A stretch of 64,000 bases of DNA, from NCBI RefSeq assembly GCF_964204645.1, contig NC_134030.1:18002210-18066209 (forward strand), written 5' to 3'. Position numbers and translations under genes: made by a program. Below the pieces are notes generated by a model. It did no database searches. It was not told where the DNA came from and saw only the letters and a program-made list of their open reading frames with translations. This DNA is from Tubulanus polymorphus (Eukaryota > Animalia > Nemertea). Below are positions 1 to 22,830 of the stretch, piece by piece (the stretch's first letter is position 1; each line of letters begins with the position of its first letter).

Positions 1-2
1 GG

Positions 3-980
3 TTTTTCATAATAATCGTTAAATAATAAATATAAATACATTTTCTTTTGTTTTGTGTTAAATGTTGGTGGAATAATTGTTTTTATAATATCTTTTTTAG
101 TTATTTCACCATTTTTATTTTCTATTATTTTCATTTTTTCAAGCCATTGCATATATTCTGGTGTATGATCTTCTATAGAAAATATTTTAAAAATTTCATC
201 AAGATAATTTAATTTTGGATCTATAAGAAAATTTCTAATTTTTTCTTCATCCCATAAATTCTTTTGCCATCCACAATCAACACAAAATAACACAGTACCT
301 TCTTGTCTTAAGGTCGCATAAATACATTGTGGGCATTTTTGTTTATAATTTATTGGTAATAGATTTTCATTAAGCTCTTGGTATTTTCTTACGTTTTCTT
401 TATGTTTTACTGTTCTATTATGTAGATTTGAATTACTTGTTGTAATAATCAATTTACAATATTTACAATAATATGTTTTTCTTGTTAATTCATTATATTG
501 TTTTTCTAACTTTTCAACTGTTTCTTCATTATCTGGTAACGTTTTCTCATATTTTATTTTTTCTAATAAATTATTTTTTCTTTCATTGAATTCAGTTTCA
601 AATTTATTAGAAATTTTATCTATGTGTGCTTTACTAAATTGATGATTCTCCCAATCTTCTATATTGTCAGGGCTATATTTTACTTGACAAGGCTCACAGA
701 AATTATTCTTTACATTATTCTTGTTATAAAATAAAAAAGGTCTTTTCCAAATAACTTCAGGTTCAACTTCAGCAGAATTATTATCAACATTAGCTGTTGC
801 GCCATTAATTCTACACTTCTCTGAATGTTTTTTAACATAATTTCTTGAGAATAATTGATTACATTTTGGGCAGTTTATTTTAGGGGGTTTATAATTTTCA
901 TCATGTTTTTTCATATGTCGAGCCTTATTACTTTTTCTTAGAAGTTCACCACAAATTTCACATGCTATCTTCTCGTCCAT
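3..980 (-). CDS. Multi-zinc-finger viral protein (>326 aa, open off the left edge; missing from the ORF track)
   Basis: Manual translation from ATG 980: MDEKIACEICGELLRKSNKARHMKKH...CPKC...HSEKC...CEPC...HQFSKAH...YYCKYC...HNRTVKH...CPQC...CVDC. No stop before position 3. Confidence 0.8.
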   Translation of the reverse strand, partial: MDEKIACEICGELLRKSNKARHMKKHDENYKPPKINCPKCNQLFSRNYVKKHSEKCRINGATANVDNNSAEVEPEVIWKRPFLFYNKNNVKNNFCEPCQVKYSPDNIEDWENHQFSKAHIDKISNKFETEFNERKNNLLEKIKYEKTLPDNEETVEKLEKQYNELTRKTYYCKYCKLIITTSNSNLHNRTVKHKENVRKYQELNENLLPINYKQKCPQCIYATLRQEGTVLFCVDCGWQKNLWDEEKIRNFLIDPKLNYLDEIFKIFSIEDHTPEYMQWLEKMKIIENKNGEITKKDIIKTIIPPTFNTKQKKMYLYLLFNDYYEK

Positions 981-993
981 TTATTAAGGAAAA

Positions 994-1013
994 AAATTAC
1001 TTGTGGTGATGAG
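994..1013 (-). promoter_or_regulatory. 20-bp upstream motif of leftward viral genes, copy 1
   Basis: CTCATCACCACAAGTAATTT on the minus strand, identical at 10832-10851 and 11119-11138. Each copy ends 13 nt before the ATG of a TAAATG start. Confidence 0.7.
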
Positions 1014-1036
1014 GTAATTTTTTTATGTTATAAATA

Positions 1037-1834
1037 ATGGTAGAATTAAAAGAATACAGAATATTTGTTGATTCTAGAAAACTTATAAATTATAAATCTC
1101 ATAATTTATTAGTACAATTAGATAGAGAATTTAAGAATTGTGTAGATTTAAAATTAGTAAATATAAGTTTATGTAATTCTTTTTATAATATATCGGATAA
1201 AACTGATGAACATAGAAGCCTTCTTATTTTTGATAAACTTGAAAAAAAATGGATTCAACTTATGCTTACACCAGGATTATATAATTTAGAAACATTAGCG
1301 CAAGAAATTAATAGAAAAGCTCGGATTAGATTAGGTAATGGTAATTCCAAATTTAATATTAAATTCATAAAAAGTGAGAGCTCTAATAAAATTAAAATAA
1401 AGCTTGATGATGAACTTATTAAACTTGATAAATCTGATCCATTGATGACAAGAAGACATACTTACACGGTAAAAAAACCTATAGCTAAACTATTAGGAAT
1501 TACTCCAAATCAATTTGGTGGAAACAAACACGGTAACTCAAATATAATACCTTTTACACACTTTTATATTTATTGCAATTTAATCGATCCTACAAAAACA
1601 TTCGAAGCAACTAAAGATACAACATGTAATTCTGGTTTACTAAACATTTTACCATTGAAGAATGTTAAACAATTTGGAACGCAAATAAATTATAATTTAA
1701 CAGAATGTGATTTTAAACCTTGCATTCCTAAATTTAATAATTTTAGATTAGAAATTAGAAATCATAATGGATACTTAATTGATTTAAATAACTTTCCTGT
1801 GATATATGAATTAGTTATAAGATGTAAAGAGTAA
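1037..1834 (+). CDS. Probable minor capsid (penton-like, single jelly-roll) protein
   Basis: 265 aa. The pattern IFVDSR...NSFYNIS...PGLYN...FYIYCNLI...LEIRNHNGYLIDLN resembles Polinton/PLV/virophage minor capsid proteins. Confidence 0.7.
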   Translation: MVELKEYRIFVDSRKLINYKSHNLLVQLDREFKNCVDLKLVNISLCNSFYNISDKTDEHRSLLIFDKLEKKWIQLMLTPGLYNLETLAQEINRKARIRLGNGNSKFNIKFIKSESSNKIKIKLDDELIKLDKSDPLMTRRHTYTVKKPIAKLLGITPNQFGGNKHGNSNIIPFTHFYIYCNLIDPTKTFEATKDTTCNSGLLNILPLKNVKQFGTQINYNLTECDFKPCIPKFNNFRLEIRNHNGYLIDLNNFPVIYELVIRCKE

Positions 1835-1850
1835 TTTTTCACCTATAAAA

Positions 1851-2207
1851 ATGAATATAACTGTTGGACCGAGTATATGTTTTGGGTTTGATTTTAAACG
1901 TGAGAAAGAAATGAAATTTAACATTAATGATGTAATAACACATATCAAAAATGTTGTATTTTCTAATGAAACAACATTTGAGTATGAAACAACAATAGAT
2001 AAAGAAACTTTTAATGTAGAAAAGATTACTAATTTAATTAGAGAATCTTTAAAATTTTATGAATTAGATGAAGATTTTATAATCGATGATATTGAAAAAA
2101 TAATAATTGAAATATATACAAATGAAACTAGTAATAAAATAAATGTTGAAATAATCATCACTAAGATAACTAAATATTTTGATGATAGTAATTTTTTTGA
2201 TAAATAA
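1851..2207 (+). CDS. Hypothetical acidic viral protein
   Basis: 118-aa ORF in the tightly packed gene array. Its TAA stop forms the TAAATG of the next gene. Confidence 0.65.
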   Translation: MNITVGPSICFGFDFKREKEMKFNINDVITHIKNVVFSNETTFEYETTIDKETFNVEKITNLIRESLKFYELDEDFIIDDIEKIIIEIYTNETSNKINVEIIITKITKYFDDSNFFDK

Positions 2208-2429
2208 ATGAGTGATAATAAGTGGATAATAACTGGATTATATAATGGCGCATTACTATCAGTTGGAACGGTTGGTTATTCAATGGTATTAAAAAAAGTA
2301 TTCAAAATGGGAAGTGTTAATGTTGATAGATTTGATATAAATGATATTTTAAAGTTAACGTTAGCAGTTACTTTATCTAATTTAACTATTGATTATTTGG
2401 AAAAACAAAAATATATTCCTCCCATATAA
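2208..2429 (+). CDS. Small hydrophobic viral protein
   Basis: 73 aa with two hydrophobic segments and a TAAATG start. Confidence 0.7.
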   Translation: MSDNKWIITGLYNGALLSVGTVGYSMVLKKVFKMGSVNVDRFDINDILKLTLAVTLSNLTIDYLEKQKYIPPI

Positions 2430-2453
2430 ATGCATAATTTTTTTGTTAAATAA

Positions 2454-2876
2454 ATGGCTTCTGCAATTATAACTATTATAGGATCGGCAATTGTTAACGC
2501 TTTAGCATTTACTGGTGGTGGTTATTTATTTAAACATATTGATAAAAATAGTTCATTAGGAGAACAAAGAAGACATAACTTAGCGTTAGAGAAATACAAT
2601 AAAGCAGCAGAAGAATATAGAGAAAAAAGACAAAACTATATGGATTACATCAATAAAGAATTATATGATCAGAAGATTTCACATAGAGATTTTCAATCAG
2701 TTGATGATGCAATGAGTTTATATAACGCGGTAACCAATAAAGAAAAATTACATCTATACAAACCTAAATTATCAGATTATTATACCCCAAGTAAAGAACA
2801 ACAGAAATATGAAATAATATGGATTTTAGGTGGAACAGTTATTGTTATATTTGTTGCTTATAAGTTTACTAATTAG
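2454..2876 (+). CDS. Viral membrane protein (N-terminal hydrophobic segment, coiled coil, C-terminal TM)
   Basis: 140 aa: MASAIITIIGSAIVNALAFTGGGYLF...RRHNLALEK...IIWILGGTVIVIFVAY. TAAATG start. Confidence 0.75.
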   Translation: MASAIITIIGSAIVNALAFTGGGYLFKHIDKNSSLGEQRRHNLALEKYNKAAEEYREKRQNYMDYINKELYDQKISHRDFQSVDDAMSLYNAVTNKEKLHLYKPKLSDYYTPSKEQQKYEIIWILGGTVIVIFVAYKFTN

Positions 2877-2895
2877 TAATTTTTTTTCTAAATAA

Positions 2896-3330
2896 ATGGA
2901 AGATAAAGTTGATAGTATTGATATTATTCCTCATGATATAAATAAAACTAAATTAAAAACATATTTAGAAAAACAAATATTAGAATTTGAAAGTGACTTA
3001 AAGATAAAAAAGAAAAAATATTTAAAAAGTAAAATTATATATTATTTGATTATAAGTGGTTCGGTTACAATTAGTTCTGTAATAACATTTCTAGCAATAT
3101 TTAGTCCATTAACACCTTTAGCTATATCAATTGGTGTATTAGGATTAAGTTCAAGTGTTTTAACTGGTATAAGTTCAAAATTAAATATAAAAAGTAATAA
3201 AGAAAAAATCAAAACTAATATAAAAGAAATTAATAAATTAAAGAACACACTAGACTATATAATAAGTTTAAATGGTCATATAACAGTTGAAGAACAAGAT
3301 AAATTATTAAAAGAATTAATAAATTATTAA
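2896..3330 (+). CDS. Two-TM viral membrane protein
   Basis: 144 aa with a central hydrophobic hairpin flanked by charged helices. TAAATG start. Confidence 0.75.
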   Translation: MEDKVDSIDIIPHDINKTKLKTYLEKQILEFESDLKIKKKKYLKSKIIYYLIISGSVTISSVITFLAIFSPLTPLAISIGVLGLSSSVLTGISSKLNIKSNKEKIKTNIKEINKLKNTLDYIISLNGHITVEEQDKLLKELINY

Positions 3331-3346
3331 TTTTTTAATTATATAA

Positions 3347-4666
3347 ATGGCAGATAGTTTTCCAAAAGCTTTCCAATATAATAAATCAATTAAATATAAT
3401 ATTCCGGCAATAGATTTTAAGAAAAATATTACATATAAAAATATAGTTTTAAATTCATTTACTAATTTAGAAATTTATGTTAATGAATCACAGTTTTTTA
3501 TTTCTAAAATGGAAAATATATTTAATACATATGAAGTTACTTTTACTCGAGATGAATATCATATATATAAAGTAAAATCTAATATGAAGTATTGGCAGAA
3601 TCAATTAAATTTTGCTGTTTATTGTGCAACAACAGGATGTGGAATAAGTTGGAATGATCATTTAAATAACTTAGATAAAAATTTAAAGTATTCTAATTTA
3701 AAATTAATTCACACAATATTTAGATTTCACACATATTTTCAAATCAGAATAATATTAAATGAATTAGAATGTCCTTTACCCGGGTCTAAATATTTTAAAG
3801 AATTGGATAATAATATTAATATATCCAAGTTTTATAAAATATGTAATGAATTTAATATAGATATTAATTCCGATTTCAGAGCGCATGGTAAATTGCAAGG
3901 TGTTGGTGAAGAGTTTGAAATAAAAAGAATTGATTATATGCATAGAATTTCAGCTTATCGTAATTATAAAATTGATAATAATAATGGTTGGGTTAATTTC
4001 ATTTTAGAAAATGGTGAAGGTTTTACAAAATCAGGTATACAAAGAATAAATCAATCTATTAGAATTTATTTGATATGTATTTTAGGCGCTCAAGTTGAAA
4101 CAAGATCCCCAATAATTGGAAATGATAACACTTCATTCGATGCGTAGAAACAATTTAAAGTTTTATTTGAAGATTCAATTCATAATGATAAAAATAGATC
4201 GATTCCAGAAAACATTATAAGATATCAAAATTATTCAGATAAATCTCATATTAGATTAAATTATTGTATAGGACCTAATCTATTAATTATTTCTAATGAT
4301 TTAGTATTAAAGATGGGAAATATAATTGGTTATAATAATCTAATTAAAACTGCAACAATAAACAATTCATTTGGATTAAATGATATAAATAAAAAGATTA
4401 TTACTGCTCCAAAATTAATGGAAGGTGAAAAAAATAAAAAACATATTCAATCAACAGAAACTAAAACTAAGAATATTAAATTAAATAATGATTCTAAAAT
4501 AAAAGATTACAATACTACAGAAAATGGTGCCATACGGCACCCACACGGTGATATTCAACATGATGTAATTAAACTAAATGATGATAATAAATCCCATGAA
4601 AATACTAAATTAGCTATAACTTGTATAGGAATTGTTATAGGAGGAATATTATATTTTAAATTTTAA
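3347..4666 (+). pseudogene. 439-codon viral protein with C-terminal TM, interrupted by one in-frame TAG (4145-4147)
   Basis: ORFs 3347..4147 and 4313..4666 are in the same frame and joined by 55 stop-free codons (SFDA*KQFKVLFEDS...LVLKM). The second ORF lacks the TAAATG start. Confidence 0.8.
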
Positions 4667-4682
4667 TTTTTTTATTATATAA

Positions 4683-6116
4683 ATGGATGTAGAAGGTGTA
4701 GAAGATATTGGAATGGATCCTTTTTATGAACCTGGTATAACTGATGAACAACCACCTGATTTTGATGAAACAAGTTTTAATGATGGTAATGAACCAGAAT
4801 ATAATAATAATTTAAATATGCCTGATTATATTAAAAATGCTGAATCACAATTAAATCCTGAAAATTTAGACCCAGATTTAGTGAAACAAGATTTAGATAA
4901 TTTAAAAAAAATACCTAAATTAGAAGATTTAATTGAAAAATCTAATTGTAACATAAATGATGAAGACGTTGGACTTTTAGCAGATTAATTAAAATTTTTA
5001 GATAATGGTAAATGTTATTATCGTTTGAAAGGTGATTATTATATTGATATCACTAATCAAAGGACAAAACTAAAAAAAATATTAGCGGAATCAACTTTGA
5101 AAAATTTAGAAACATTTAGAATTAAGAGAATAAGTAATATTAATGAAATAACTGATGTTACACAAAAAGAAAGAGATGATAATATAGACGTATTTAAACA
5201 AAGAATTAATGAATTATTTGAAATAATCAAAAAGAAATCAGAAACAGAAACAACTTCTGAACAGAATATAACTTCCAAAAATAGTAAACTTAAATCAAAT
5301 AAAGTTCCAATTGAAAAACTTTTACCGAATGGATTAATTGATGCAACAGATCAAGAATTAGAAGATTTAGATATATTTTCTGATAAAGCAATTAGAGAAA
5401 TTATTAGTATAAGACTTGCATCTGATAAAATTGCACATAATAAAAGTATAAGAGATCAAAAAATTACGTATTTGGAAAAAGAATTAACTGATAAAAATAA
5501 AGAAATAGAACAATTAAAGTCTGATTTAGATCATCAAGTAATTGATGAAATAGAATATAGGCAAAAAGAATTACGTTTAGAAAAAGAAATTAGTAATCTA
5601 AAAGATAATTTAGAAGTACAGAAAGAAGAAATTAAATTATTGTTAAAATCATATGATTATAATATTAATAGATTAAAAGTTATTTTTAAAGATTTGTTGA
5701 TTAAACCAAATTCTGAAATATCATTAAAAGATAGGATAAAGTTATTATTTAAATTAGAAGGAATAACAATTCTTTCAATTCTAACAGCTGTAACTATGGT
5801 ATTTACAACAATTGGTTTAGCAATATCAAATGCTTTGAAATCTACTCCCACTCCCAATAAACCAGATAAACCTCCAGGTAATAATTCTATACAAGATAAA
5901 GTTAAAGATGGTTTAAAGAAATTAGCAAAATATTTATGGGAACTATCAAAGAAATCTGCTGCAGCATTACCAGGAGTTATTGCTTCAATTGTTGGTTTTA
6001 TATTGAAATCTGCTGGGAATATTCTTAACTTTGCTGCTGAACATATTATTTTATTTTTAATTACAGTTGTAAGTGCTATTATTTTTGGGTTAGTGAATAT
6101 GATTAAAAATAAATAA
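4683..6116 (+). pseudogene. 477-codon acidic/coiled-coil/multi-TM viral protein, interrupted by one in-frame TAA (4986-4988)
   Basis: ORFs 4683..4988 and 5025..6116 are in frame (LLAD*LKFLDNGKCYYRLKGD). The second begins at TTG without the promoter motif. Confidence 0.8.
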
Positions 6117-6136
6117 TTAATTTTTTTGTTAAATAA

Positions 6137-7384
6137 ATGAGTGGGAGTTATATAAGTCCTTCTAAGATTTCTAGAATATCTAATGCTATTAAAGCAGAAA
6201 GATCACATCATATAATTACTCATAACCCTTCAAATATTAATCCCGATGAAACTTTATACGTTAGAATCCCTCGATTAACACAAAATACTTTTTATGTTCC
6301 AAACAGTATTTATTTATCAGCTGATATAAAAGTAATCGGTAATAATAATAATTATGTTGTTGATAATGTTGGAAGATATTTGATTAAAAAGTTAACAATA
6401 AAGATTGGTCCAGAAACAGTTTTCTCATTAGATGATTATAATTTATTTATGCACTATAAAGATTTATGGTTAACTAAAGAAAATAGAAATAATATGATAT
6501 TTCAGGGTATTCAATCAGAAAACCAAAATAAATTAAGATCAGAAGCTAATAGCGCAATATTAACAAATGATGTAGATAAATTGATAAAAAGTATATATGG
6601 AAGCAAATATAAAATTCCATTAGACTTTGAATTGATAAATAATAATGCCCCTTTATATAAATACGCAATTCAAGAAGATATTATATTTGAGATAACATTT
6701 GCTCCTGTAAATGAAATTGTATTATCTAGCGTTGTTAAAGATATGGGTTATAAATTATCGAATATATGTTTAGAATATAACACAGTAACTAATGAAAATA
6801 TTGCTAGCACAATTCAAACTCAATACAATCAAGGATTTTCATTATTATATGATTATATTGATAAATTTAAAACTGTAACTATTAATGCAAATGATGAAAT
6901 AATTAATGAGAATATTAACTTTCCTAGAAGATCTATTAAAGGTATATTAATATTTTTTACCATTGCAACATATTCTAATGGCGCAATAAATGTTGATAAT
7001 TATTATAATCCTGAAATAACAAAAGTAGAAATAACTATCGAAGGAATAGCGAATAAAATATTTTGCCAAGGAATGAGAATGATTGATCAATGGCCAGAAA
7101 TTAGAAAACATTTTATGAACGAAAAAGTGAAATCATCTGAAAATTGTAATATTAATCAAATTGATTATTATACTGGTAATAAATATGCATTATGGTTAGA
7201 TTTTAGAACAACTGAAGATAATTCATTACATGGTTCTGGGAAAAAATTACAAAATACAAAAGATGGGATCCAATTATTTATGAAAAAGAAAAAGGGAATC
7301 AAAAATTTTAAAATGCATATTTATATTATATCTGACGCACAATTAAATATTGTAAATTCACAATTAGATAGTATTCAAAATTAG
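6137..7384 (+). CDS. Probable major capsid protein (divergent double jelly-roll)
   Basis: 415 aa, beta-strand-rich, with no TM segment. Its size and position next to the integrase and ATPase fit an MCP. The fold is inferred, not computed. Confidence 0.65.
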   Translation: MSGSYISPSKISRISNAIKAERSHHIITHNPSNINPDETLYVRIPRLTQNTFYVPNSIYLSADIKVIGNNNNYVVDNVGRYLIKKLTIKIGPETVFSLDDYNLFMHYKDLWLTKENRNNMIFQGIQSENQNKLRSEANSAILTNDVDKLIKSIYGSKYKIPLDFELINNNAPLYKYAIQEDIIFEITFAPVNEIVLSSVVKDMGYKLSNICLEYNTVTNENIASTIQTQYNQGFSLLYDYIDKFKTVTINANDEIINENINFPRRSIKGILIFFTIATYSNGAINVDNYYNPEITKVEITIEGIANKIFCQGMRMIDQWPEIRKHFMNEKVKSSENCNINQIDYYTGNKYALWLDFRTTEDNSLHGSGKKLQNTKDGIQLFMKKKKGIKNFKMHIYIISDAQLNIVNSQLDSIQN

Positions 7385-7414
7385 AAATATAAAGTTAAAA
7401 TTATGGATATATAA

Positions 7415-8542
7415 ATGAGTGGTAAAAAAACTCCTAATACTAAAGAACAATATTTAAGAAATTTATATTACAACCCTGAGAGTTCGGTTGCTTATTCTTC
7501 TACTAAAAATATATGGCGTAAAGTAAAACAAGATAAATTAGATAAGATAATCCCACAAAATTTAGTTAAATACAAAGATATAAATGAATTTATGTTAGAA
7601 CAACCAACATATACAACACATAAAAAAATTGTTAGAAAATATAAAACTCGTAAAACTATGGTAAGTTATGTAGATCAACAGTGGCAAGGAGATTTAATTG
7701 ATATGAAAAATGTTAAGAAAGATAATGATGATTATTGGTGGTTATTGAATATAATTGATATTTTTAGTCGTTATGTATGGAGTTTCCCACTTTATAGAAA
7801 AGATGCTGCACAAACATCACATGTTTTAAGAAAATTTCTTTCGGATGATAAACTAAAACCAGAAAAAATTCAATTTGATGATGGAAAAGAGTTTGATAAT
7901 TCACTTGTTCATGAACTCTTAGATAATCATAATATTAGATATTTTTCAACAAAATCAGATAAAAAAGCAGCAGTTGTTGAACGATTTAATAGAACATTGA
8001 GAACAAGAATATCAAAATATTTCACAGCAAATAATACTTATAAATGGATTGATGTTTTACCAAAATTGATAGAAGGATATAATAATTCTTATCATTCTTC
8101 TATTGGAATGAAACCTATTGATGCTAGAAAACCTGAAAATGCTGAAATTGTTTGGAATAATTTATATGGAGCATTTCTTGTAGATGATTTTGGTGAACCT
8201 AAATTTAAAGTTGGTCAAAATGTTAGAATTTCTAAGTATAAAAAGATATTTGACAAAGGATACGATCGAAATTTTACTAGAGAAATATATAAAATAAAAA
8301 AGGTAATAACAACAAAACCATATGTCTATAAATTAGAAGATTTAGATGGTGAAGAAGTTGATGGCTACTTTTACGAAGAAGAATTAAGTTTAACTACTGA
8401 AAATATAGAACAAGAATATAAAATTGAAAAAGTACTAAAAACAAAAACTGTCAAAAGAAAAAAATATTCTTTAGTAAAATGGGTTGGATGGCCAGATAAA
8501 TTCAATGAATGGATATTATCAAGTAAAATTAAAAATATATAA
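7415..8542 (+). CDS. Retroviral-like (rve) DDE integrase with C-terminal chromodomain, Polinton type
   Basis: WQGDLIDM / IQFDDGKEF / AVVERFNRTL catalytic triad. YNNSYHSSIGMKP and KFKVGQNVRIS follow. Chromodomain: YKIEKVLK...YSLVKWVGWPDKFNEWI. Confidence 0.95.
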   Translation: MSGKKTPNTKEQYLRNLYYNPESSVAYSSTKNIWRKVKQDKLDKIIPQNLVKYKDINEFMLEQPTYTTHKKIVRKYKTRKTMVSYVDQQWQGDLIDMKNVKKDNDDYWWLLNIIDIFSRYVWSFPLYRKDAAQTSHVLRKFLSDDKLKPEKIQFDDGKEFDNSLVHELLDNHNIRYFSTKSDKKAAVVERFNRTLRTRISKYFTANNTYKWIDVLPKLIEGYNNSYHSSIGMKPIDARKPENAEIVWNNLYGAFLVDDFGEPKFKVGQNVRISKYKKIFDKGYDRNFTREIYKIKKVITTKPYVYKLEDLDGEEVDGYFYEEELSLTTENIEQEYKIEKVLKTKTVKRKKYSLVKWVGWPDKFNEWILSSKIKNI

Positions 8543-9151
8543 ATGAATAAGGAATTATTCATATTTGAGCCTCATAATATGTTAATTTCTGGTGTAACAA
8601 ATTGTGGTAAAACACACTTCATATTAAATTTACTAGAAACTGTTTACAAAAACTATTTTGATAATATAGTATTATTTTGTCCAACATATGAATTTAATCA
8701 AACTTATGATAGAAATATTACTAGAAATAATAAATTTATTATATTAGATCCTAAAACAGTAAAAGAAAATTTAGATAATTGTATAAAAATAGCAATTGAT
8801 ATTTATAAAGGATCAAATACATTATTCATCATAGATGATTGTGCAAATTTACATGATTCAAAAGTTAGAGAAAGTGAGTTATGTTATTTAGCTTTTTCTA
8901 GCAGACATTTTGGGATAACAACTTGGGTTTTAAATCAAAAATATAATTCAATTGTTAAAGACTTTAGAGAAAACATTAGATTTCTAGTTTTATTCTACAA
9001 TAAAGATAGAAAATCGATGAAAAATGCACTTGAGGAAAATGATATTATTCCACATGATTTACATAATGAATATATGGATAAGTTGAAAAATATTAAAAGA
9101 TCAAAATTACTATTTAGATTACAACACCCATTTAAATATGAATTTATTTAA
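8543..9151 (+). CDS. A32/FtsK-HerA-like DNA packaging ATPase
   Basis: Walker A GVTNCGKT, Walker B LFIIDD, and the SRHFGITTWVLNQKY arginine-finger/glutamine motif. Confidence 0.92.
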   Translation: MNKELFIFEPHNMLISGVTNCGKTHFILNLLETVYKNYFDNIVLFCPTYEFNQTYDRNITRNNKFIILDPKTVKENLDNCIKIAIDIYKGSNTLFIIDDCANLHDSKVRESELCYLAFSSRHFGITTWVLNQKYNSIVKDFRENIRFLVLFYNKDRKSMKNALEENDIIPHDLHNEYMDKLKNIKRSKLLFRLQHPFKYEFI

Positions 9152-9402
9152 ATTCAACTAGCTTGTTAATCTAGTTGAATTCTAGTTGTTAGTAGTTGAA
9201 ACAAAAATCAACTAGATTTAACAATATTTCAACTAGCTTGTTAATCTAGTTTAATTCTAGTTACATTCTAGTTGAATTCTAGTTGTTAGTAGTTGAAACA
9301 AAAATCAACTAGATTTAACAAGAAATAAACAAACACAACAATATTTCAACTAGCTTGTTAATCTAGTTGAATTCTAGTTACATTCTAGTTGAATTCTAGT
9401 TG
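9151..9402. repeat. Non-coding block of tandem imperfect palindromes
   Basis: Three copies of TTCAACTAG-CTTGTTAAT-CTAGTT(G/T)AA near 9153, 9227 and 9345, plus repeated CTAGTTGAATTCTAG units. Confidence 0.9.
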
Positions 9403-9433
9403 CAACAACACAACTAATTTAATTGTTATATAA

Positions 9434-10039
9434 ATGGGAGGTGAAAAGAAAATGAAATCTAAAAATGGTGATGTTCCAATTGAAAAAACTTTAGATGATT
9501 TAGGAATAACAGAAACAAAATTAACTCCAGATGATGGTGCTTTAAATAATGTTACAACAAATAATAATTATGAATATTATCTTTATTGTAAACATCAATT
9601 AGAAATATTAATAGCATCTGGAAAATGTAAAAATTTTGTGGGTAAAAATTTAACTTATAATGAATTAGATACAATGAAATCAGATGAAATTATTAGATTA
9701 TTTAAGATTTATGAATCCGCGAGAACAGCTAGAATTAATGACGCGATATCAGAAAATGTAGTAAAAGGTTATAGTAAATTATGTAATTATATACTACCAA
9801 TTGAAGATGAAAATAGATTATATTCCGATTTAAAAAATGATTATTTAGTTATGACTGAATTAAATAAATGGATTGGATATTTATCATTTCAATTAGGTGG
9901 ATTTATGACATTATTATCAACTGGAGTTATAACATTTTCAAATATTGAAAGTAAAAATATTTCTATAATAAATGAGCGAGGTGAAAGAAGTGAAGGAATT
10001 ACCTGTGAAGAAAAAACCGAGAACTCAGAAACAAATTGA
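9434..10039 (+). CDS. Hypothetical viral protein with a hydrophobic C-terminal segment
   Basis: 201 aa with a TAAATG start. Confidence 0.75.
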   Translation: MGGEKKMKSKNGDVPIEKTLDDLGITETKLTPDDGALNNVTTNNNYEYYLYCKHQLEILIASGKCKNFVGKNLTYNELDTMKSDEIIRLFKIYESARTARINDAISENVVKGYSKLCNYILPIEDENRLYSDLKNDYLVMTELNKWIGYLSFQLGGFMTLLSTGVITFSNIESKNISIINERGERSEGITCEEKTENSETN

Positions 10040-10328
10040 ATGGTCTCGACAATTAGGAATTAAATCACAAGAATATAAAAAAGCTGTAAAAGAAAAAATA
10101 AGTAATAAAAATGGTGAAAATATTGTTATTTCTACTCCTTCTGATAGTAGAATATTTGATAAATATTTATATTTTACAGTTGGATTTGTAATTGTATTCA
10201 TTTTGATTGGGTGTAATTGGTATAAGAAATCAAATAAAATTCATGATATTAGTAATTCTGAACCAACTGCTATTAAAAATGAAAATACTTATGAAATTCC
10301 AAAATTGACAATAAAAAAAATGGATTAA
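9972..10328 (+). CDS. Basic single-TM viral protein
   Basis: 118 aa: KKKPRTQKQ N-terminus and TM YLYFTVGFVIVFILIGC. Its TAAATG start lies inside the upstream ORF. Confidence 0.75.
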   Translation: MSEVKEVKELPVKKKPRTQKQIEWSRQLGIKSQEYKKAVKEKISNKNGENIVISTPSDSRIFDKYLYFTVGFVIVFILIGCNWYKKSNKIHDISNSEPTAIKNENTYEIPKLTIKKMD

Positions 10329-10491
10329 TATTTTAGAAAAAAAGCAAAAAAAATAATTTTTTTAAATTAATTGAATATTAATTGAATATCTCACTACTTT
10401 TGTCTATCTATGTGGAGCAATTAAATTGTCAAGATAAGTCATTTCGGATTCTAGATATTCATTATTTTTATTAATTTATTTTTTTTTAAAT

Positions 10492-10818
10492 TTAATCAAC
10501 AATTTCTAAATCATGATGACCGTCTTCATTTTTCCCATGATATATTATTTTAAATCCTTCTAAATCTTTCAATTCCTACATACTCAATGAAACCCATTTA
10601 TCGGGTAAAAACACTTTAAATTCTCGCGATGTACTAACATTACATTAGCTTAAATTAGCTGATACTTTCTCTCCATATTTAGTTTTTATCTTTTCTAATT
10701 TCAATATTTTATGTTCAATTTCTTTTGTAACATCAACTAACTTTTTTATTTCAAATTGTTTTTTTGCTGGTTTTATTCTGTTATTTATTGTTGCTAAGAA
10801 TGCTTTTCTATCTCCCAT
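10492..10818 (-). pseudogene. 108-codon viral gene with two in-frame stops (possible OB-fold-like protein)
   Basis: MGDRKAFL...KTKYGEKVSANLS*CNVSTSREFKVFLPDKWVSLSM*ELKDLEGFKIIYHGKNEDGHHDLEIVD. It has the 20-bp motif and a TAAATG start. The fold guess is weak. Confidence 0.7.
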
Positions 10819-10831
10819 TTATAAGGAAAAC

Positions 10832-10851
10832 AAATTACTTGTGGTGATGAG
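10832..10851 (-). promoter_or_regulatory. 20-bp upstream motif, copy 2
   Basis: Identical to 994-1013. Confidence 0.7.
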
Positions 10852-10901
10852 TGGGATTACTTCCCCTTGTATATAACAAACACGTTATTACGCAGCTGTT
10901 G

Positions 10902-11105
10902 TTACGCGCACTCACTGTTTATATGTGACACAATTTTACTACGTAATATTTCTAAAATTTCAATTATATCTTTTATTTCTAGTGAATCAATATAATTTCT
11001 AACATTTTCCATGTAAGGTTTATCGATGTATTTTTTACAATATGGGCAATAATATTGATTTTTATTGACATTATTGTTTTCTAATTGGAACTCACTCTCT
11101 CCCAT
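10902..11105 (-). CDS. Small zinc-binding viral protein
   Basis: 67 aa with YYCPYCKK and a C-terminal H...C. It has the 20-bp motif and a TAAATG start. Confidence 0.65.
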   Translation of the reverse strand: MGESEFQLENNNVNKNQYYCPYCKKYIDKPYMENVRNYIDSLEIKDIIEILEILRSKIVSHINSECA

Positions 11106-11118
11106 TTATTAGGGAAAA

Positions 11119-11138
11119 AAATTACTTGTGGTGATGAG
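11119..11138 (-). promoter_or_regulatory. 20-bp upstream motif, copy 3
   Basis: Identical to 994-1013. Confidence 0.7.
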
Positions 11139-11192
11139 TGGTGTTTAGTACTCTCGTACTCTGGTATGAAAGCCTGATATTCTAATTACTGC

Positions 11193-11612
11193 TGACCGCT
11201 CTCGCGGTCGCATACGCAATCGTGTTTAGACGTCTGGATTGGCTCGCGCCATCACCTGGCGATTTGTTGTCAAGGTCGAGGTCGAGTTTGTTTATCAGCA
11301 GAGTAGACATAGTTACGTAAAATGTCTGGACTACGGCATAGTGTATACCAGCGCCACCTGGCGAATAAGTAACAGCGAGAAAATCTGACTTGTTCCTTAT
11401 TGGGAGATGAATTCTCAATAAGTAACAAGAAAATCTGAACCGGTAAAGACGAAAATCTGAATAAGGAAGAAGGAACAAGGAACATGTAACATGTTACTTG
11501 TTCCTTATTGGGAGATGAATTCTCAATAAGTAACGAAAATTGAACCGGTAAAGACGAAATCTGAATAAGGAACAAGGAACAAACAAGTAATGAACTTCAG
11601 TGGGGCCACTGA
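11193..11612. mobile_element. Non-autonomous Helentron/HINE-like repeat with an internal tandem core
   Basis: A block of about 180 bp is nearly identical to 16503-16681 and starts with a GC hairpin. About two copies of a 108-bp unit follow. Confidence 0.55.
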
Positions 11613-14230
11613 ACGTGGCTGATTAGCATATCAGTTTAATTACGTATCGAATCCAGACGTCCGTCATCATTGCGTAACTGTGTTTGTTAGCTGTAACCTC
11701 GACCTTAACCGAGCTAGACAATTGAGACGTCTTAGCAACCACTATGTGTGATGTCAGTGAGATCTCAATGCAACTGTAGTAAATATGTAGTAGAATCTTG
11801 GATTAATCATTTGAATGTAGGGTTTGTATTTTTGTATGCAGGGAACATACTGTAAAGCTGAACATAAGATGAAGGCAATTCTTTATCTTTTAAAAATTTA
11901 TTCTCTTTTCATTTCAAACAAACTTTGTATACCGTACTAAGAGTGGTTTGCATAGCTCTCAACGAGGACCGCATGAAACGTTATTGGTCGGTTTGAAATG
12001 TATTGCCATTTGTGGGAAATACAACTGTGACCCATCACCGTCAGCTCCATTTATTTAACAACCTAAATGTGAACACGTCTCTGTCGAATTATAATTCTGA
12101 TTTATGTTTTGTTGATGTCTGCAGCAGTTCGTCACAGTCGGCAAAACATGTTATTTGCTCTAGCAAAAGTAATAAGTTCAATGTTCCAATTATTCTACGA
12201 AACATAGGCACAAAAGTACTTAGTAGAACCAGGGAAGTGTGATGTGTCATCACACTTCCCTGGTAGAACCATGTCAGCAAGACCATATTCTTTCTTGTCG
12301 ATTTCGTTTCCCCAGGGTATCAACTCCATTGACTGTGTGTAATGAAAATCACAGCGCAAACGAGCTACCCCAGTTACACATACGACCAATTTCAATGGAA
12401 TCTGTTATACTCAAAAACCACAATCCGACATCTGTATTGTGTGAATATGCTACTAGCCTTAGGTAACGATGTACTGGACAATTGTTGTTTGAGATATTAT
12501 CGCAATGAAATATGCAATGAATCAATGCACACTTGCTATAAAATAAAAATGCTATAATACTAACATTTCAAAATATCAATCATTCATAAACCTTATATAA
12601 AAAATATCTGAACATGTGGAATTTTTTAATGGAATTATAAGGATGGAAAATCATTTGTTCACGTTCAGAAGTCAATCGATCAATCAATCAATTTGAAATA
12701 TCTCGGGGTTAAGAAATGTGGAGGTAGTCGAAAATCGTGATTAGAAATGGAATTTGAACGTCATTATATAAACTACGTGTATTGTTGCTACCATGGTAAT
12801 AAAATCCGATGATTTTGCCCCTATCTCATTTCTGTCGGAAGTTCGTCGTCGGAAAATCGTCGTTAATCCTATACGTCGGTAATTAGCCGGATATTGTTTG
12901 ATATCGTAGGTTGTTTAGCGGTTATTTAACCGCTAAACAACCGACCAATTTACCACTTAATTACCATCTAATTACCGACCAATTAACCGCTCATTTACCG
13001 CAAGGGACAATACTGAGCCCTAGTAAAATCCAACCAACAAGACATCAATCTTCGGGCGGCCATCGGCATCGGGGCATCGCGATAGATATACCGGAATAGC
13101 TCATTTGCCGTTTGTTTCCATGCATTACAAGTTCGTGTTATTTTGTAGTAAATAGTCAAGGCTTTCATCTGAGATAGGCCACCAAAATTCGTCCAAACTT
13201 ACTTACATTTGAAGTGAACGCTCACATCTGTCATAATCACTGATTGATAATATACTTGAAATTAATTCTGAAATATTCCGGAAATTGAAATAGGAGGATG
13301 TTGATTTCTGTTCGGTATTTCGATTACTTAGGTGTCTAGTTTATCACAAGCTATTGGGTTCGAATCCCACTATAACCATTTTACGCAGCATACGAAAAAA
13401 GTGCCATGGCGGATACAGGCGGCTTGAGTGACTTATGTTGCATTCATTCTCCTATCACTGGGGGTTGCATTGCTCGTGCACTAAAAGCGTTTTATGACTG
13501 GGAACAATCAATTAATTTGTTTGCGCTCGGGAGGCAGTATTCTCAGTTCATCTACGCGCTTGTAGATTGATGTTTAACAGAAGCGCTCTGGTCACGCTAC
13601 ATTTACAGCTTCTCATCATTACACACCTGGAACCCTGTGGTTTCTATGCACTCAACCAGCGTAATCTTGGTTGGAGTTTTTTTTTTTTGGGGGGGGGGGG
13701 GGAACACATCACAGTTATTTGATGGGTGTTCATGTAGATGTGACAATTCAGATTTGGTACTTAATAACCCTGGCCAAAATATGAATAATTATTAGAATTA
13801 GGCATTGGATTAAGTATAACATATAAAATCATAACAAACTGAAATATAAACACATCATCAGCCATTTCGCTGAAGATATCTCCCTCTGTGAGGAAATGTC
13901 CCGGCACCAACATGGTTCTTCAGAGAATAAAACATCATTTCTATTATTCTATTGATAACTATTTCCATGGTATGTGCTGGCCAAATTTCGTTTACAAATA
14001 TTCGGCAGACATGCAGAGAAAACTAATAGGCCCCTATCATTTTGAAAACTAGATTCACAATATTTAATAGAGCACGGGGCAATCCGATTGATATGCTTAA
14101 ATAAAAGGACACCTGGTTTCTTACGACCGGGCAAGCGGTGTCACTTAGGTCGATTAGCAAACTGACAAATAAAATCCATCCGATCGGTCAAATCATCCTG
14201 TGAGTCGCGATAACTGAATACATTGATGTG

Positions 14231-15228: not shown

Positions 15229-15789
15229 TCTGTTCTGATCAAATATTTACTAGAGTTGCAGACATCGGCACGCACGTGGTGTTTGTTAAGACGTCTCCAT
15301 TGGCTTCCACTTTGTTACGGTGGTTGAGGTAGAGGTTAACTATAGCTCTTATCAGCAGACATGTTTACGCAATCGTGTTTAGACGTCTGAATTGGCTCGT
15401 GCCATCACCTGGTGATTTGTTGTGTCCAGGTATTAGACTTCTATTTGTAGATACTTCTAATTAGTAAATTCTTCCCTAATTAGCGTTTGTGAAATAGATT
15501 TAATCATCGAATTCACTAACTAGAATAAAGCACTTTCAATTCGAATTATCACCTAAACCGGGCCCAGGGCATTAACCCATTTGGCTGTGGGAAAAACTAC
15601 ATATCACAAGTCACGCGTACAATCTATCTCGTAGCTTCATACACTCATATCGGAATGATGACGTAGTAGCAGCAGCTGGCAGTTTTTAAAAGGAAAGAAA
15701 TTTCCGAGGATTTCGCTTATTTCACAAAACCTTCAATGAATGAAAGAAGATATTATGAGTTGCCGAGTCAAAATGCAGGTCAACGCTCC

Positions 15790-16499: not shown

Positions 16500-16971
16500 G
16501 CGACCGCGAGTCTCGCGGTCGCATACGCAATCGTGTTTAGACGTCTGGATTGGCTCGCGCCACACCTGGCGATTTCTTGTCAAGGTCGAGGTCGAGTTTG
16601 TTTATCAGCAGAGTAGACATAGTTACGTAAAATGTCTGGACTACAGCACAGTGTACACCAGCGCCACCTGGCGAATAAGTAGCCAGCTTAACATTTTGAA
16701 TCGGGAGCTGAACCAGTAGCCGGCTCCCGGTTCCCGGTTCCCGATTCGGCTCCCGGTTCAACAGCATTTTGAATCGGGAGCTGAACCAGTAGCCGGCTCC
16801 CGGTTCCCGGTTCCCGATTCGGCTCCCGGTTCAAAAGCATTTTGAATCGGGAGCTGAACCAGTAGCCGGCTCCCGGTTCCCGGTTACCGATTCGGCTCCC
16901 GATTCAAAAGCATTTTGAATCGGGAGCCGAATAAGGAACCGGGAACCGGGAGCCAGCTTCACAGGGGTACC
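16500..16971. mobile_element. HINE-like repeat with a tandem core of about 62-bp units
   Basis: Hairpin GCGACCGCGAG-T-CTCGCGGTCGC, then the shared 180-bp block, then about four GAATCGGGAGC...GGCTCCCGGTTC units. Confidence 0.6.
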
Positions 16972-16974
16972 AGA

Positions 16975-17915
16975 AATGCTTATAACTGCCACTGAAACCC
17001 TAACACCTCCGCTGACCATTTTTTTTTCAAAGTCATCCTTCAATCAGGTATTTACCCACAATATTGGAGCAGTGTCTGCATTACACCCATTCATAAGAAA
17101 GGGATGACTTCCGACCCAAACAATTATAGAGGTATCACCGTCTTGCGCTGCTTCGGAGATATATTTTTAATTATTTTGAATACACGCATTATACAACGGT
17201 CAGAGGCACATCAAGTATTAAATTATGCACAGGCCGCTTTTTGGCCAAATAATGGTACTATAAATCAATCCTTTGTATTATCTCCAATCATCGACCACTG
17301 TATAAAGAAGAAAATGAAAAATGCGTGTATGGCATTCGTAGATTTTTCTAAGGCCTTCGATTATTTGAACCACGGAATTCTCTGGAAAAAAGATTCTGGA
17401 AGCTGGTATCACTGGCAAAGTTTATAACATAACTGAATCTATGTATACAAACAGCGAATCATGTGTCAAAAACAATGGGTTCATATCTAGCTTTTTTGAC
17501 TGCACCGTCGGCGTAAGGAAATGCGTTTGTATCTCTGCTGTACTTTTCAATATCTATATTAATGACATGGAAGAATTTTTTATAAACAATGGCCATCCAG
17601 GCATTGACTTTAATTTATTCAAACTATGTCTTGCTTTACGCCGATGATACCGTCATTCTAGCCCAATCGCCCGGAGAATTGCAGGGTGCACTTGATATTC
17701 TGTATGATTATTGTAAAAAGATGAAACTATCTGTGAATTCTGCTAAGACATAGACAATGAAAATTGGGTTCCGCAGAAATAACCGTAACCCCCTTTTATG
17801 TTTTTATAACGATGTCCTACTGGAAGAGCTGTCAACCTTTCAGTACCTTGGCATTACTATATCAAATAACGGCAAAATGTCTGCTGCAATCAAGTCGCAG
17901 GCCGATCAAGGTACA
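16975..17915 (+). pseudogene. Non-LTR retrotransposon reverse transcriptase fragment (CR1/L2-group-like)
   Basis: ITPIHKKG..SDPNNYRGIT, FVDFSKAFD, LFNIYIND, YADD and VNSAKT motifs, with frameshifts and stops. Confidence 0.9.
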
Positions 17916-18680
17916 AGAGGCGGTTCCTGAACTTCGCTGAAAAAGCGGAATATTGAAACGCTGAAATAAAAACGCTTAAATTTCAGGGAATTTCCGAAAA
18001 ACGCCGAAATCGTGCTAGGTACCGACAATACACGTTTTGAAATATTTTCCGGGCCAGTGTCCGCTGCCGAGCTCTGAACCGTGTTTTAGTCTCTACCTTC
18101 GGTTACAGAGACATGCATGGACAGTATGTGTGGAGTATACTTCTAGAGGGCTACTTGTTAGACAAATTAATTCGCTTGAAATCCAGATTTTTAATGCATA
18201 CAGGCAGCGTAATGAGGAAAACCCATTCACAAACCGTGCAAGCCAACTTAAACACTATGCTCAATATTCCCTGCAAGACGCAAAATATCTTATTTGAACG
18301 TTCATGTATAAAACATGGAGCAACTTTTCTTTTGTCAACACGTTGATGGGCGACGGACTATATGGTATTCTCTGAAGGAGGTAAATTAAATTTGACAGCT
18401 AGTTATATAAATGATGCAGCTTTTGGACAAAAGGGATCTAACTAAACTTCTTTTTAATTCACTGTGGAATGGAATGGAATGGATTGACGCCAATGGCATG
18501 CAGTAGGCCCCTACGTATGGGTCATACTGATTAGCGTCAACCAATTGATCTAAATCGGGCAAACCATTCAACAACTGTGAATAATTTATTTGCTGTAGTG
18601 TGATAATGATTAATTTTTTTTTGAAGAAATGACATACCAACTGTGAGGAGAGAATCCCACAATGATAATAAAAATTCGCT

Positions 18681-19712
18681 ATGGGAAATCCTCTAAGTCC
18701 TATTCTAGCTAATTTATTCCTAGAACATGTTGAATCTGAAATATTGCCTCTTTACACTGATATTCACCCTAAAATCTGGCTCAGATATGTTGACGATGTT
18801 CTGGCTTTGGTTCCCTTTGACTTCAATGTTGATAACTTTCTTATATATTTAAACTCCCTTTACCCGTCTCTGGCTTTTACGTATGAATGGGAATCTAATA
18901 GTAAAATACCTTTTCTGGATGTTTTGATTTTTAACTGTGGATCCTTTTTGAAATTCGCGGTTTATAGGAAACCTACCAACGCTGAATCCTACCTCCATTA
19001 CTTCTCTTTTACTTCTCCGGATATTAAACTCGGTTTAGCTCAAGGATTATTTCTTCGCGCTTTGAGAATTTGCGACCCCTCATTTCTACCCGATAAAATT
19101 CACCATATTAACCAATCTCTCAAAAAACTTGCCTACCCCGATTTCCTATTGAAAAAAGCTCTACTTAAAGCTCGTACTACGCATTTTAGAAATAACAACC
19201 TTAGAACTCCTACGTTGGCTACCGATAAACAGCCTATCATTGTACCGTATGTACCTTTCCTCGAGAATTCTAAAGTTTCTCTTCGGTCACTAAATAAACA
19301 ACTCATCTTTAAATACAATAATAAACTTAGTAACATATTGATTAACAACAAACCGAAAACCGAATCCCTAAACTGTGGAATTTATGAAATACCTTGTAAA
19401 GTTTGCGACAAAGTATATATAGGAGAAACAGGTCGGAATCTTAATCAACGCATAAAAGAGCATAAATTAGATGTAAAAAACTTTAAACCTGAAAGCGGAG
19501 TTGCTAGTCATGTTTTTCAGACTTCACACAATTTTGATTTTGCTAATGCTGAATTAGTTTACCCTTGCAGCGATAGAACTAGAAGACATATTTTGGAATC
19601 TGCATTAATTATTGAAAATTCGAACAACGTTGTAAACCTTAACAATGGTTTTTCACCCCATAATAAACTTATATCAAAATTCCTCTGTAAACTGGTTAAA
19701 CTCAACACTTGA
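18681..19712 (+). CDS. Penelope RT C-terminal half plus GIY-YIG endonuclease (5'-truncated)
   Basis: MGNPLSPILANLFL, WLRYVDDV, IPFLDV, VYRKPT and GIYEIPCKVCDKVYIGETGR motifs. Confidence 0.93.
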   Translation: MGNPLSPILANLFLEHVESEILPLYTDIHPKIWLRYVDDVLALVPFDFNVDNFLIYLNSLYPSLAFTYEWESNSKIPFLDVLIFNCGSFLKFAVYRKPTNAESYLHYFSFTSPDIKLGLAQGLFLRALRICDPSFLPDKIHHINQSLKKLAYPDFLLKKALLKARTTHFRNNNLRTPTLATDKQPIIVPYVPFLENSKVSLRSLNKQLIFKYNNKLSNILINNKPKTESLNCGIYEIPCKVCDKVYIGETGRNLNQRIKEHKLDVKNFKPESGVASHVFQTSHNFDFANAELVYPCSDRTRRHILESALIIENSNNVVNLNNGFSPHNKLISKFLCKLVKLNT

Positions 19713-21780: not shown

Positions 21781-22240
21781 AAGAAATATTCTCTGGTGAA
21801 ATATAACGGGTATGATGATAAATTTAATGAATGGATATTATCTAGTAAAATTAAAAGATAATTAGATTATTGTATTAAAATAGCAATTGATATTTATAAA
21901 GGATCAAATACATTATTTATCATAGATGATAGTGCTAATTTACATGATTCAAAAATTAGAGAAAGTGAACTATGTTATCTAGCTTTCTCTGAGAGACATT
22001 TTGGGATTACAACGTGGGTTTTAAATCAAAAATATAAATCAATTGTGAAAGATTATAGAGAGAATATAAATTTTTAGTTTTATTCTACACTAAAGATAGA
22101 AAATCTATGCAAAAATCATTGGAAGAAAATCAAATTATACCTACTGAATTACATGATGAATATATGAATAAATTAAAAAGGAATAAAGGTTCCAAATTAT
22201 TACTGAGACTACAATTTCCCAATGAATATAAATTTATAAA
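21781..22240 (+). pseudogene. Relic of a related virus: integrase chromodomain end fused by deletion to the C-terminal half of the packaging ATPase
   Basis: KKYSLVKYNGYDDKFNEWILSSKIK, then LDYCIKIAIDIYKGSNTLFIIDDSANLHDSKIRESELCYLAFSERHFGITTWVLNQKY. Homologous to 8457-8534 and 8765-9151. Confidence 0.9.
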
Positions 22241-22271
22241 ATAAAATTAGAATAATTTAAATTATTTCAAA

Positions 22272-22815
22272 TTAATACCCCGTTGTGTCTTTATTGTCTT
22301 TAGTACTTTTAGTACATAAAGAATATATCTTTATTTTATTAGTATTTAGAAAAAAATATATGTATAATTTTTATATATAATAAATCTATGATATTTTTCA
22401 TTATTGGAACAGTAATATATAAAATCTATCAGATGAATAAATATTATTATCATTATCTATCAGATGAAACAGTAATATATAGAAATCTGTGAAATAAATA
22501 TTATATCATTATCATATCAAATATATAATCTGTGAGATTAATAAATATTATATTATACAAATTTTTTATTAGTCTTAACTAAATTAAGATTTAATATATA
22601 AAATATATATATACTTTTTTTCATTTTTATTTTTTTCAAGTACTAATAAAATAAAGATATATTCTTTATGTACTGAAACTACTAAGACTACTAAGGAGAT
22701 AAAGACATAGATGGGTATTATGATTTTTATTTTTCAAGTACTAATGATATAAAGATATATTATTTATACTAAAAGTACTAGAACGACTAAAGACATAAAG
22801 ACACAGGGGGTATTA
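22272..22815. repeat. AT-rich inverted/tandem repeat block downstream of the relic ATPase
   Basis: 22311-22344 is a perfect 34-bp reverse complement of 22641-22674. A third related arm lies at about 22730-22815. Confidence 0.8.
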
Positions 22816-22830
22816 TATTCATATTGAAAA

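Follow-up and report, generated by a model that had tools for sequence, protein, structure and literature searches.

A start-site motif resembling the poxvirus late initiator in a Polinton-type provirus of the nemertean Tubulanus polymorphus

Introduction

The locus described here raises the question by which machinery the genes of an integrated animal virus are transcribed when nearly all of them begin at the same short sequence, TAAATG, which is familiar from the late genes of poxviruses. It lies in a stretch of 64,000 nucleotides from the nemertean Tubulanus polymorphus (assembly GCF_964204645.1, contig NC_134030.1, positions 18,002,210 to 18,066,209 of the forward strand), called the window in the following. 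The element in question is a Polinton-type endogenous virus at positions 1 to about 11190 (no strand assigned), the left end of which lies beyond the window. In protists, integrated virophages awaiting their helper are an established phenomenon. The way of life of animal polintons is described as open, and no virion as having been seen (bioRxiv 10.64898/2026.06.19.733378; here and below, papers are cited for the accessible parts of their text). An earlier note, made from the letters of the window, had proposed that the element is transcribed by a co-infecting cytoplasmic large DNA virus and acts as a heritable provirophage.

The start-site motif

Genes are named here by the position of their start. 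The A of ATG is numbered +1, and the fifteen starts were aligned on TAAAT, which gave the following promoter-like motifs:

978..999, minus strand: motif of gene 980
1015..1039, plus strand: motif of gene 1037, shifted by 3 nucleotides
1832..1853, plus strand: motif of gene 1851, A for T at -3, upstream half in register
2189..2210, plus strand: motif of gene 2208, inside the 3' end of the 1851 open reading frame (ORF)
2435..2456, plus strand: motif of gene 2454
2877..2898, plus strand: motif of gene 2896
3328..3349, plus strand: motif of gene 3347
4664..4685, plus strand: motif of gene 4683
6118..6139, plus strand: motif of the capsid gene 6137
7396..7417, plus strand: motif of the integrase gene 7415
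8524..8545, plus strand: motif of the ATPase gene 8543, inside the integrase 3' end
9415..9436, plus strand: motif of gene 9434
9953..9974, plus strand: motif of gene 9972, inside the 9434 ORF
10816..10837, minus strand: motif of gene 10818
11103..11124, minus strand: motif of gene 11105
1000..1013, 10838..10851 and 11125..11138, minus strand: an extra 14-nucleotide element directly upstream of the motif (repeat family D2)

At 13 of the 15 starts the ATG follows TAA, exactly as the earlier note had listed them, and its two exceptions are likewise as given, gene 1037 reading TAAATAATG and gene 1851 reading TATAAAAATG. Positions 1 to 11150 contain 396 ATGs on both strands, and only 21 of the 381 other ATGs were found after TAA (Fisher p 1e-13). 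Since the first ATG of spurious short ORFs follows TAA in only 21 of 264 cases, a rule of "first ATG after a stop" fails as an explanation. The hexamer itself is not enriched across the window (97 observed, 89 expected), so the signal is a positional one.

The motif extends farther upstream than TAAATG, a half of it which the earlier note, correct on the TAAATG part, did not contain. AA stands at -18/-17 in every one of the 15 starts, as against 32 of the 193 other TAAAT sites of the element, and in 14 of the starts it is part of a TAA at -19 to -17. T at -12 is found at 12 of the 15 starts and at 73 of the 193 other sites, and positions -16 to -10 are occupied by a T-run centred on -12 at a fixed spacing to TAAAT. 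In gene 1037 TAAAT lies 3 nucleotides farther from the ATG and the upstream half is displaced by the same 3 nucleotides, which indicates that the upstream half is anchored on TAAAT and not on the ATG. The gene which takes the position of gene 1851 in L007, an 11.5-kb relative from the same clade, starts at TAAATG. The TAA at -19 is the stop codon of the preceding gene at 3347 and 4683 only, and three motifs (those of 2208, 8543 and 9972) fall within coding sequence. The 12 plus-strand genes are spaced by 16, 0, 24, 19, 16, 16, 20, 30, 0, 282 and -68 bp.

The 14-nucleotide element is common to the three minus-strand genes only, as far as the window is concerned, and was not found ahead of gene starts in the related loci. 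Sequencing reads connect positions 11139/11140 with other sites in the element. The 14 nucleotides are possibly a separate regulatory class or a recombination site.

Conservation of the motif in one clade of relatives

The relatives comprised the best 80 of 207 metagenome stretches and two stray loci from metagenome-assembled genomes (MAGs), 82 loci altogether, in which twelve gene families were aligned in order to choose the starts. A quick IQ-TREE tree of 65 capsid ORFs of at least 300 amino acids (midpoint root, careful search unfinished) put the window capsid into a clade of 15 rows with a support of 99 in the SH-like approximate likelihood-ratio test (SH-aLRT). In the 14 other loci of this clade the motif is kept at orthologous starts, as the proposal of the earlier note implied: 39 of 51 alignment-chosen ATGs read TAAATG (background 98/2154), and 44 of the same 51 starts do so when the first ATG of the ORF is taken. 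Clade members with a guanine-plus-cytosine (GC) content of 33-44% still have it at 10 of 15 starts. A related clade of 38 rows, by comparison, has TAAATG at 0/217 starts by alignment and at 2/217 by first ATG, and its eight AT-rich loci at 0/28. Among 12 loci placed between the clades, two (L076 and L079) have it at 7 of 8 starts and the other ten at 2 of 42. Another finding was that seven divergent gene pairs in clade loci, 19-64 bp apart, carry TAAATG at 13 of their 14 starts, and the motif thus marks 5' ends.

Further start-site styles occur in the family. In a subclade of four closely related loci (L042, L057, L078, L081) TATA stands right before the ATG at 12 of 16 distinct starts (background 6%), often with a T-run ahead, which resembles the late initiator of African swine fever virus (ASFV). 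In AT-rich relatives (L026, L029, L064, L049, L025, L021, L028 and others) AAA precedes the ATG at 24 of 43 starts, and 8 of these 43 read TAAAA, a third style. GC-rich relatives have TAAATG at none of 152 starts, 124 of which carry a purine at -3, and their divergent gaps measure mainly 8-105 bp.

Comparison with poxvirus promoters

Vaccinia late promoters are described as having a T-containing core 5-7 bp ahead of TAAAT(G/A) (PMC5294985), and a review gives TAAAT(G), preceded at a distance of ten bases by a conserved T, together with an A/T-rich stretch at 15-19 for intermediate poxvirus promoters (PMC11980589). An entomopoxvirus late gene likewise begins at TAAATG (PMC3061580). As the late initiators of ASFV and of Cafeteria roenbergensis virus (CroV) are TATA (PMC7163114) and TCTA, respectively, the likeness is to poxviruses rather than to these two. 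The element shares with late and intermediate poxvirus promoters TAAAT(G) over the start codon, the T at -12 and the A/T-rich part 15-19 nucleotides upstream, but keeps AA at -18/-17 more strictly (43/70 as against 49/197).

This register was compared with 27 chordopoxvirus loci. There 136 of 197 distinct TAAATG starts have T at -12, compared with 183 of 459 non-starts; the corresponding figures for the element clade are 61 of 70 and 28 of 95. The correlation between the T profiles of the two sets is highest at zero offset (r 0.73; a permutation test over a similar range gave p 0.0003). A matrix trained on the poxvirus starts from -22 to -4 told the starts of the element apart from other TAAATG sites, with an area under the curve (AUC) of 0.93 at zero offset and of 0.62-0.86 at other offsets. 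The likeness to the poxvirus late initiator which the earlier note had recognised therefore holds in its upstream register as well, is conserved in the clade and follows 5' ends in divergent pairs.

The fixed-spacing pattern of the window was also used to scan IMG/VR, with one match listed per locus in 34 of the 64 parts of the collection. It matched 120 loci, 35 of them at ORF starts, and no helper candidate was among them. Three of the 120 are the start of an orthopoxvirus gene between A26L and an RNA polymerase gene, and these represent one gene, not three events. This gene is presumably the A-type inclusion gene. The promoter of the A-type inclusion gene has been called late (PMC3741161). 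TAAATG was seen only once among the 49 other ORF starts of 24 giant-virus MAG loci obtained in the same scan, and a scan with a looser motif yielded just 5 unrelated phage-like loci.

Transcription by a pox-like helper and its alternatives

Given that the observed motif has a fixed register, tracks 5' ends, is restricted to one clade and agrees in position with chordopoxvirus starts, it is proposed, with a probability of roughly 0.6, that the element would be transcribed by a pox-like cytoplasmic virus co-infecting the cell, in the way known for mavirus with CroV. The pox-like RNA polymerase and late factors of the helper would bind the motif and initiate within the AAA before the ATG, and slippage on this AAA would add a poly(A) leader, by which the leaderless message would become translatable; in vaccinia slippage does yield such a leader (PMC12722222). 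Integrated copies would stay silent up to infection of the cell by a helper, as suggested by endogenous mavirus-like elements (EMALEs) of type 4 with CroV; mavirus-like elements which are integrated and carry the late motif of CroV are reported to respond to this virus (PMC10945749). Replication would be carried out by the element's own protein-primed polymerase, pPolB, which is present only in relatives, and packaging by its own capsid and ATPase. Sharing of a promoter with the helper is also described for Gezel-14T and a pacmanvirus transpoviron. In this sense the element would work like an endogenous virophage, and it is not classed as one.

Several points weigh against this proposal. That the motif acts as a promoter is deduced from sequence. 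Two scans with chordopoxvirus RNA polymerase gave only loci 69-100% identical and no helper. The compact spacing of the genes, which according to the earlier note leaves no room for normal RNA polymerase II (Pol II) promoters, is equally found in GC-rich relatives that have no motif; it is a trait of the family and no evidence for a helper, and this argument has to be dropped. Coral polintoviruses, compared by description only, are expressed in about half of their loci, and the accessible text mentions no helper (PMC11131425). A matrix trained on the element gave 0.805 on poxvirus starts at zero offset and 0.819 at +2, hence no clean peak. The poxvirus set consists of 18 gene families near one locus in related genomes, which are not independent (11 families have six or more TAAATG starts), and, as most of the non-start controls come from coding DNA, the AUC reflects in part intergenic composition. 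Besides the poxvirus gene, 32 further pattern matches in IMG/VR were also at ORF starts, on non-pox contigs. Both motifs are short and A/T-rich, and convergence is possible.

Such convergence would be part of an unlikely alternative, in which the element is an autonomous nuclear one and the motif its Pol II core promoter or initiator, maybe with a zinc-finger factor of its own. TATAWA is indeed present at -7/-8 in 7 of the 15 starts, the element encodes zinc-finger proteins, the relatives which lack the motif are as compact, and coral polintovirus genes are expressed (PMC11131425). The T at -12, by contrast, stands in the poxvirus register. A TATA box at -7 would moreover put the start of transcription past the ATG, within the ORF, and a start in AAA leaves a leader of 0-2 nucleotides, which is poorly used by scanning ribosomes unless slippage lengthens it. 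Improbable, in turn, is a cytoplasmic RNA polymerase encoded by the element itself or by a companion element, as in the yeast cytoplasmic linear plasmids (pGKL). These resemble the present case as linear DNA elements with a pox-like slippage initiator, of the TAAAA type and with poly(A) leaders, and differ in that an RNA polymerase and a capping enzyme are encoded on them; they are not known to encode a capsid. Pox-like slippage initiators are on record for yeast virus-like elements (PMC6831550; PMC12722222), the left arm of the element lies beyond the window, and no complete clade member is among the loci. Nevertheless, no RNA polymerase motifs were found in the 10 stop-free frames of at least 520 amino acids in the window and the 82 related loci of up to 14.5 kb, most of which frames fall into the pPolB cluster; and L007 contains the genes of the window plus a kinase, and no RNA-polymerase-like long ORF.

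A motif acting on the RNA level, as an upstream poly(A) signal (AATAAA with a U-run), by stop-start coupling or as a trans-splice acceptor, is very improbable. AATAAA overlaps 7 of the 15 starts, and at 2208 and 8543 the TAA also ends the preceding gene. In 11 of 13 cases, however, it does not do so, the 51 clade starts have TAA 39 times, TGA once and TAG never, and the motif is present at divergent starts which have no upstream gene, both in the clade pairs and at 980/1037 in the window. The 13 of 14 TAAATG starts in divergent pairs rule out poly(A) signal and stop-start coupling, and trans-splicing was rejected as no AG acceptor lies within 10 nucleotides of any window start. Selection by translation (Kozak context) was rejected too, in agreement with the earlier note, as T at -3 replaces the purine kept by the GC-rich relatives in 124 of 152 starts. 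Scarcely credible, finally, is a by-product of AT-rich composition and compaction: the GC content of the element is 24%, but the AT-rich members of the related clade (0/28), the clade members with 33-44% GC (10/15) and the fixed spacing refute it.

Nature and gene content of the element

The element is a multi-copy Polinton-type provirus as judged by its double jelly-roll major capsid protein (MCP), rve integrase and A32-like ATPase, which are features of Maverick-Polintons (Polintoviricetes). Its GC content of 21-25% (about 24% overall) contrasts with about 38% in the flank. At the right end, near 11190, a host repeat picks up again at about 11191, with a second copy near 16500. The genes and other features are as follows:

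3..980, minus strand: zinc-finger gene running off the window edge (zf-U1, E 2e-6; N-terminus similar in L007)
1037..1834, plus strand: conserved gene, 265 amino acids (aa; family in 22 loci, alignment)
1851..2207, plus strand: gene, 118 aa, function unassigned (ORF)
2208..2429, plus strand: conserved hydrophobic protein, 73 aa (family in 26 loci)
2454..2876, plus strand: conserved protein, 140 aa (family in 28 loci)
2896..3330, plus strand: 144-aa protein with a hydrophobic stretch (weak SLATT-like match, E 0.004, under the cut-off)
3347..4666, plus strand: conserved gene of about 440 aa, stop at 4145-4147 (gene family; L007 homologue modelled)
4683..6116, plus strand: conserved coiled-coil protein with hydrophobic C-terminus, stop at 4986-4988 (gene family)
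6137..7384, plus strand: major capsid protein, double jelly-roll (model and Foldseek)
7415..8542, plus strand: rve integrase with chromodomain (PF00665; PF00385 weak)
8543..9151, plus strand: A32-like packaging ATPase (PF04665)
9150..9402, no strand: non-coding region with short direct and inverted repeats (repeat analysis)
9434..10039, plus strand: conserved protein, 201 aa (family in 43 loci)
9972..10328, plus strand: basic protein, 118 aa, with a hydrophobic stretch (ORF, family)
10492..10818, minus strand: gene with a stop at 10645-10647 (114-aa homologue in L007)
10902..11105, minus strand: small zinc-finger-like ORF, 67 aa (weak matches only)

A Pfam scan of the window ORFs identified the integrase (PF00665, E 2e-10, with a weak chromodomain, PF00385) and the ATPase (PF04665, E 2.5e-12). 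The capsid candidate of 415 aa was modelled with a predicted local distance difference test score (pLDDT) of 90.9 as a double jelly-roll. Foldseek aligned this model with capsids of nucleocytoplasmic large DNA viruses (NCLDVs) and virophages at E 1e-19 to 1e-11, with template modelling (TM) scores of 0.64-0.66 for NCLDV capsids and a lower one, about 0.55, for the mavirus MCP, at 8-15% identity. Its 919 homologues include a bivalve protein with 38% identity. Capsids of the cluster P0046, 54% identical to that of the window, are recorded for several Bartonella assemblies, where they sit on contigs of 0.5-1.6 kb that are probably accompanying host DNA; P0046 gave no match when used as query against genome contigs. 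Capsid queries against viral contigs found no relative, a PHROGs search with 11 proteins no match, and an Atlas search with the 9434 protein no usable match.

The polymerase pPolB is absent from the window, the left arm lying outside; PF03175 was found in a relative (L024), and in a clade member (L009) tblastn detected a C-terminal pPolB fragment to which Pfam alone gave no score. An adenovirus-type cysteine protease was not seen in the 17 window ORF pieces scanned of this incomplete element. The product of gene 1037 is likely the minor capsid (penton) protein, to go by its size, context and motifs; it had no Pfam or PDB match. For the 3347 family, with 1321 homologues, the L007 homologue (L007:2996-4324) was modelled with pLDDT 83, and its fold had no Foldseek match at E 0.001 in BFVD and a best Z of 3.9 among PDB representatives. 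The region 9150-9402, between the ATPase and the 9434 gene, consists of an 11-bp repeat array and palindromes, and a gap of like size is present in L007; the array may be an origin or a signal for packaging. The block 1037-9972 has opposite orientations in L007 and in the window when the zinc-finger and 10818-type genes are taken as reference. L007 and L010 have an extra deoxynucleoside kinase, and a search with that of L007 returned 4 unnamed proteins at E 1e-20, hence no donor virus.

Three genes, with starts at 3347, 4683 and 10818, carry premature stops, which the earlier note had not listed, and the copy is therefore decaying. In a DNA run with the same species label the read depth is 60-990 on the element and 64-85 in the flank at 11719-13000, and the majority of the reads on the element are 90-99% alike; this depth and divergence indicate many diverged copies.

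With mavirus and the EMALEs of Cafeteria the element has in common an integrating way of life, an rve integrase, a jelly-roll capsid and, to judge from the motif, genes with the helper's late promoter, a motif which differs among EMALE types (PMC10945749). It differs by its animal host, a probably different capsid lineage and pox-type TAAATG instead of CroV TCTA, helper dependence being inferred here. Barth et al. (2024) described Polinton-like viruses (PLVs) inside entomopoxvirus occlusion bodies, which are proposed parasites of poxviruses and have a cysteine protease and no rve integrase (PMC11296320). The present element, integrated, multi-copy and rve-bearing, is likened to them by description and not by capsid kinship. 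Their paper contains no promoter analysis in its accessible parts, the words "motif", "TAAAT", "upstream" and "transcription" being absent from the main text and "promoter" from the supplement (PMC11296320). Maverick-Polintons and the Polinton-3_NV-like or Octocorallia, Hydrozoa and Bivalvia PLVs share MCP, A32 ATPase and rve integrase with the element, and pPolB with its relatives, but in the window no maturation protease was seen; these lineages were compared by description. A 2026 preprint on a PLV framework places animal PLVs of octocorals, hydrozoans and bivalves outside the main Maverick groups. Neither its accessible text nor that of the coral polintovirus paper (PMC11131425) contains the word "promoter", and in the open literature, to which the search extended, no paper joining TAAAT(G) with polintons was found.

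Host flank

The flank contains reverse-transcriptase and GIY-YIG fragments and weak matches to a secretin-family receptor and GON, a content consistent with an animal genome. A Penelope-like reverse transcriptase with GIY-YIG lies at 18672-19712 and another reverse-transcriptase fragment at 16996-17427, both on the plus strand. A dispersed host repeat, in or beside which the element is inserted, occurs at 11191-11380, 15330-15440 and 16500-16690, and a 108-bp tandem repeat at 11388-11582. In an AT-rich patch (22001-23000, 21% GC) there is an open frame of 196 codons on the minus strand (22968-23558) with no Pfam match.

Implications

The sequence signal is real and well controlled and stands in a known kind of element, while its implication is new and can be tested. 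If the proposed transcription by a pox-like helper is true, a clade-wide poxvirus-type promoter would connect germline polintoviruses, on the level of sequence, with a specific class of helper. More tentatively, a widespread clade of animal polintoviruses could consist of inherited virophages of an undiscovered pox-like lineage in aquatic invertebrates, with sister lineages having switched helpers, as the ASFV-type TATA starts and the ordinary Kozak context of the GC-rich relatives might suggest; the helper of an endogenous element could then be read from the motif at its gene starts. Basal pox relatives, named egoviruses, have been described from marine sediments in a preprint, where they are linked to protists. 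The reading put forward here would predict pox-like viruses in hosts other than vertebrates and insects.

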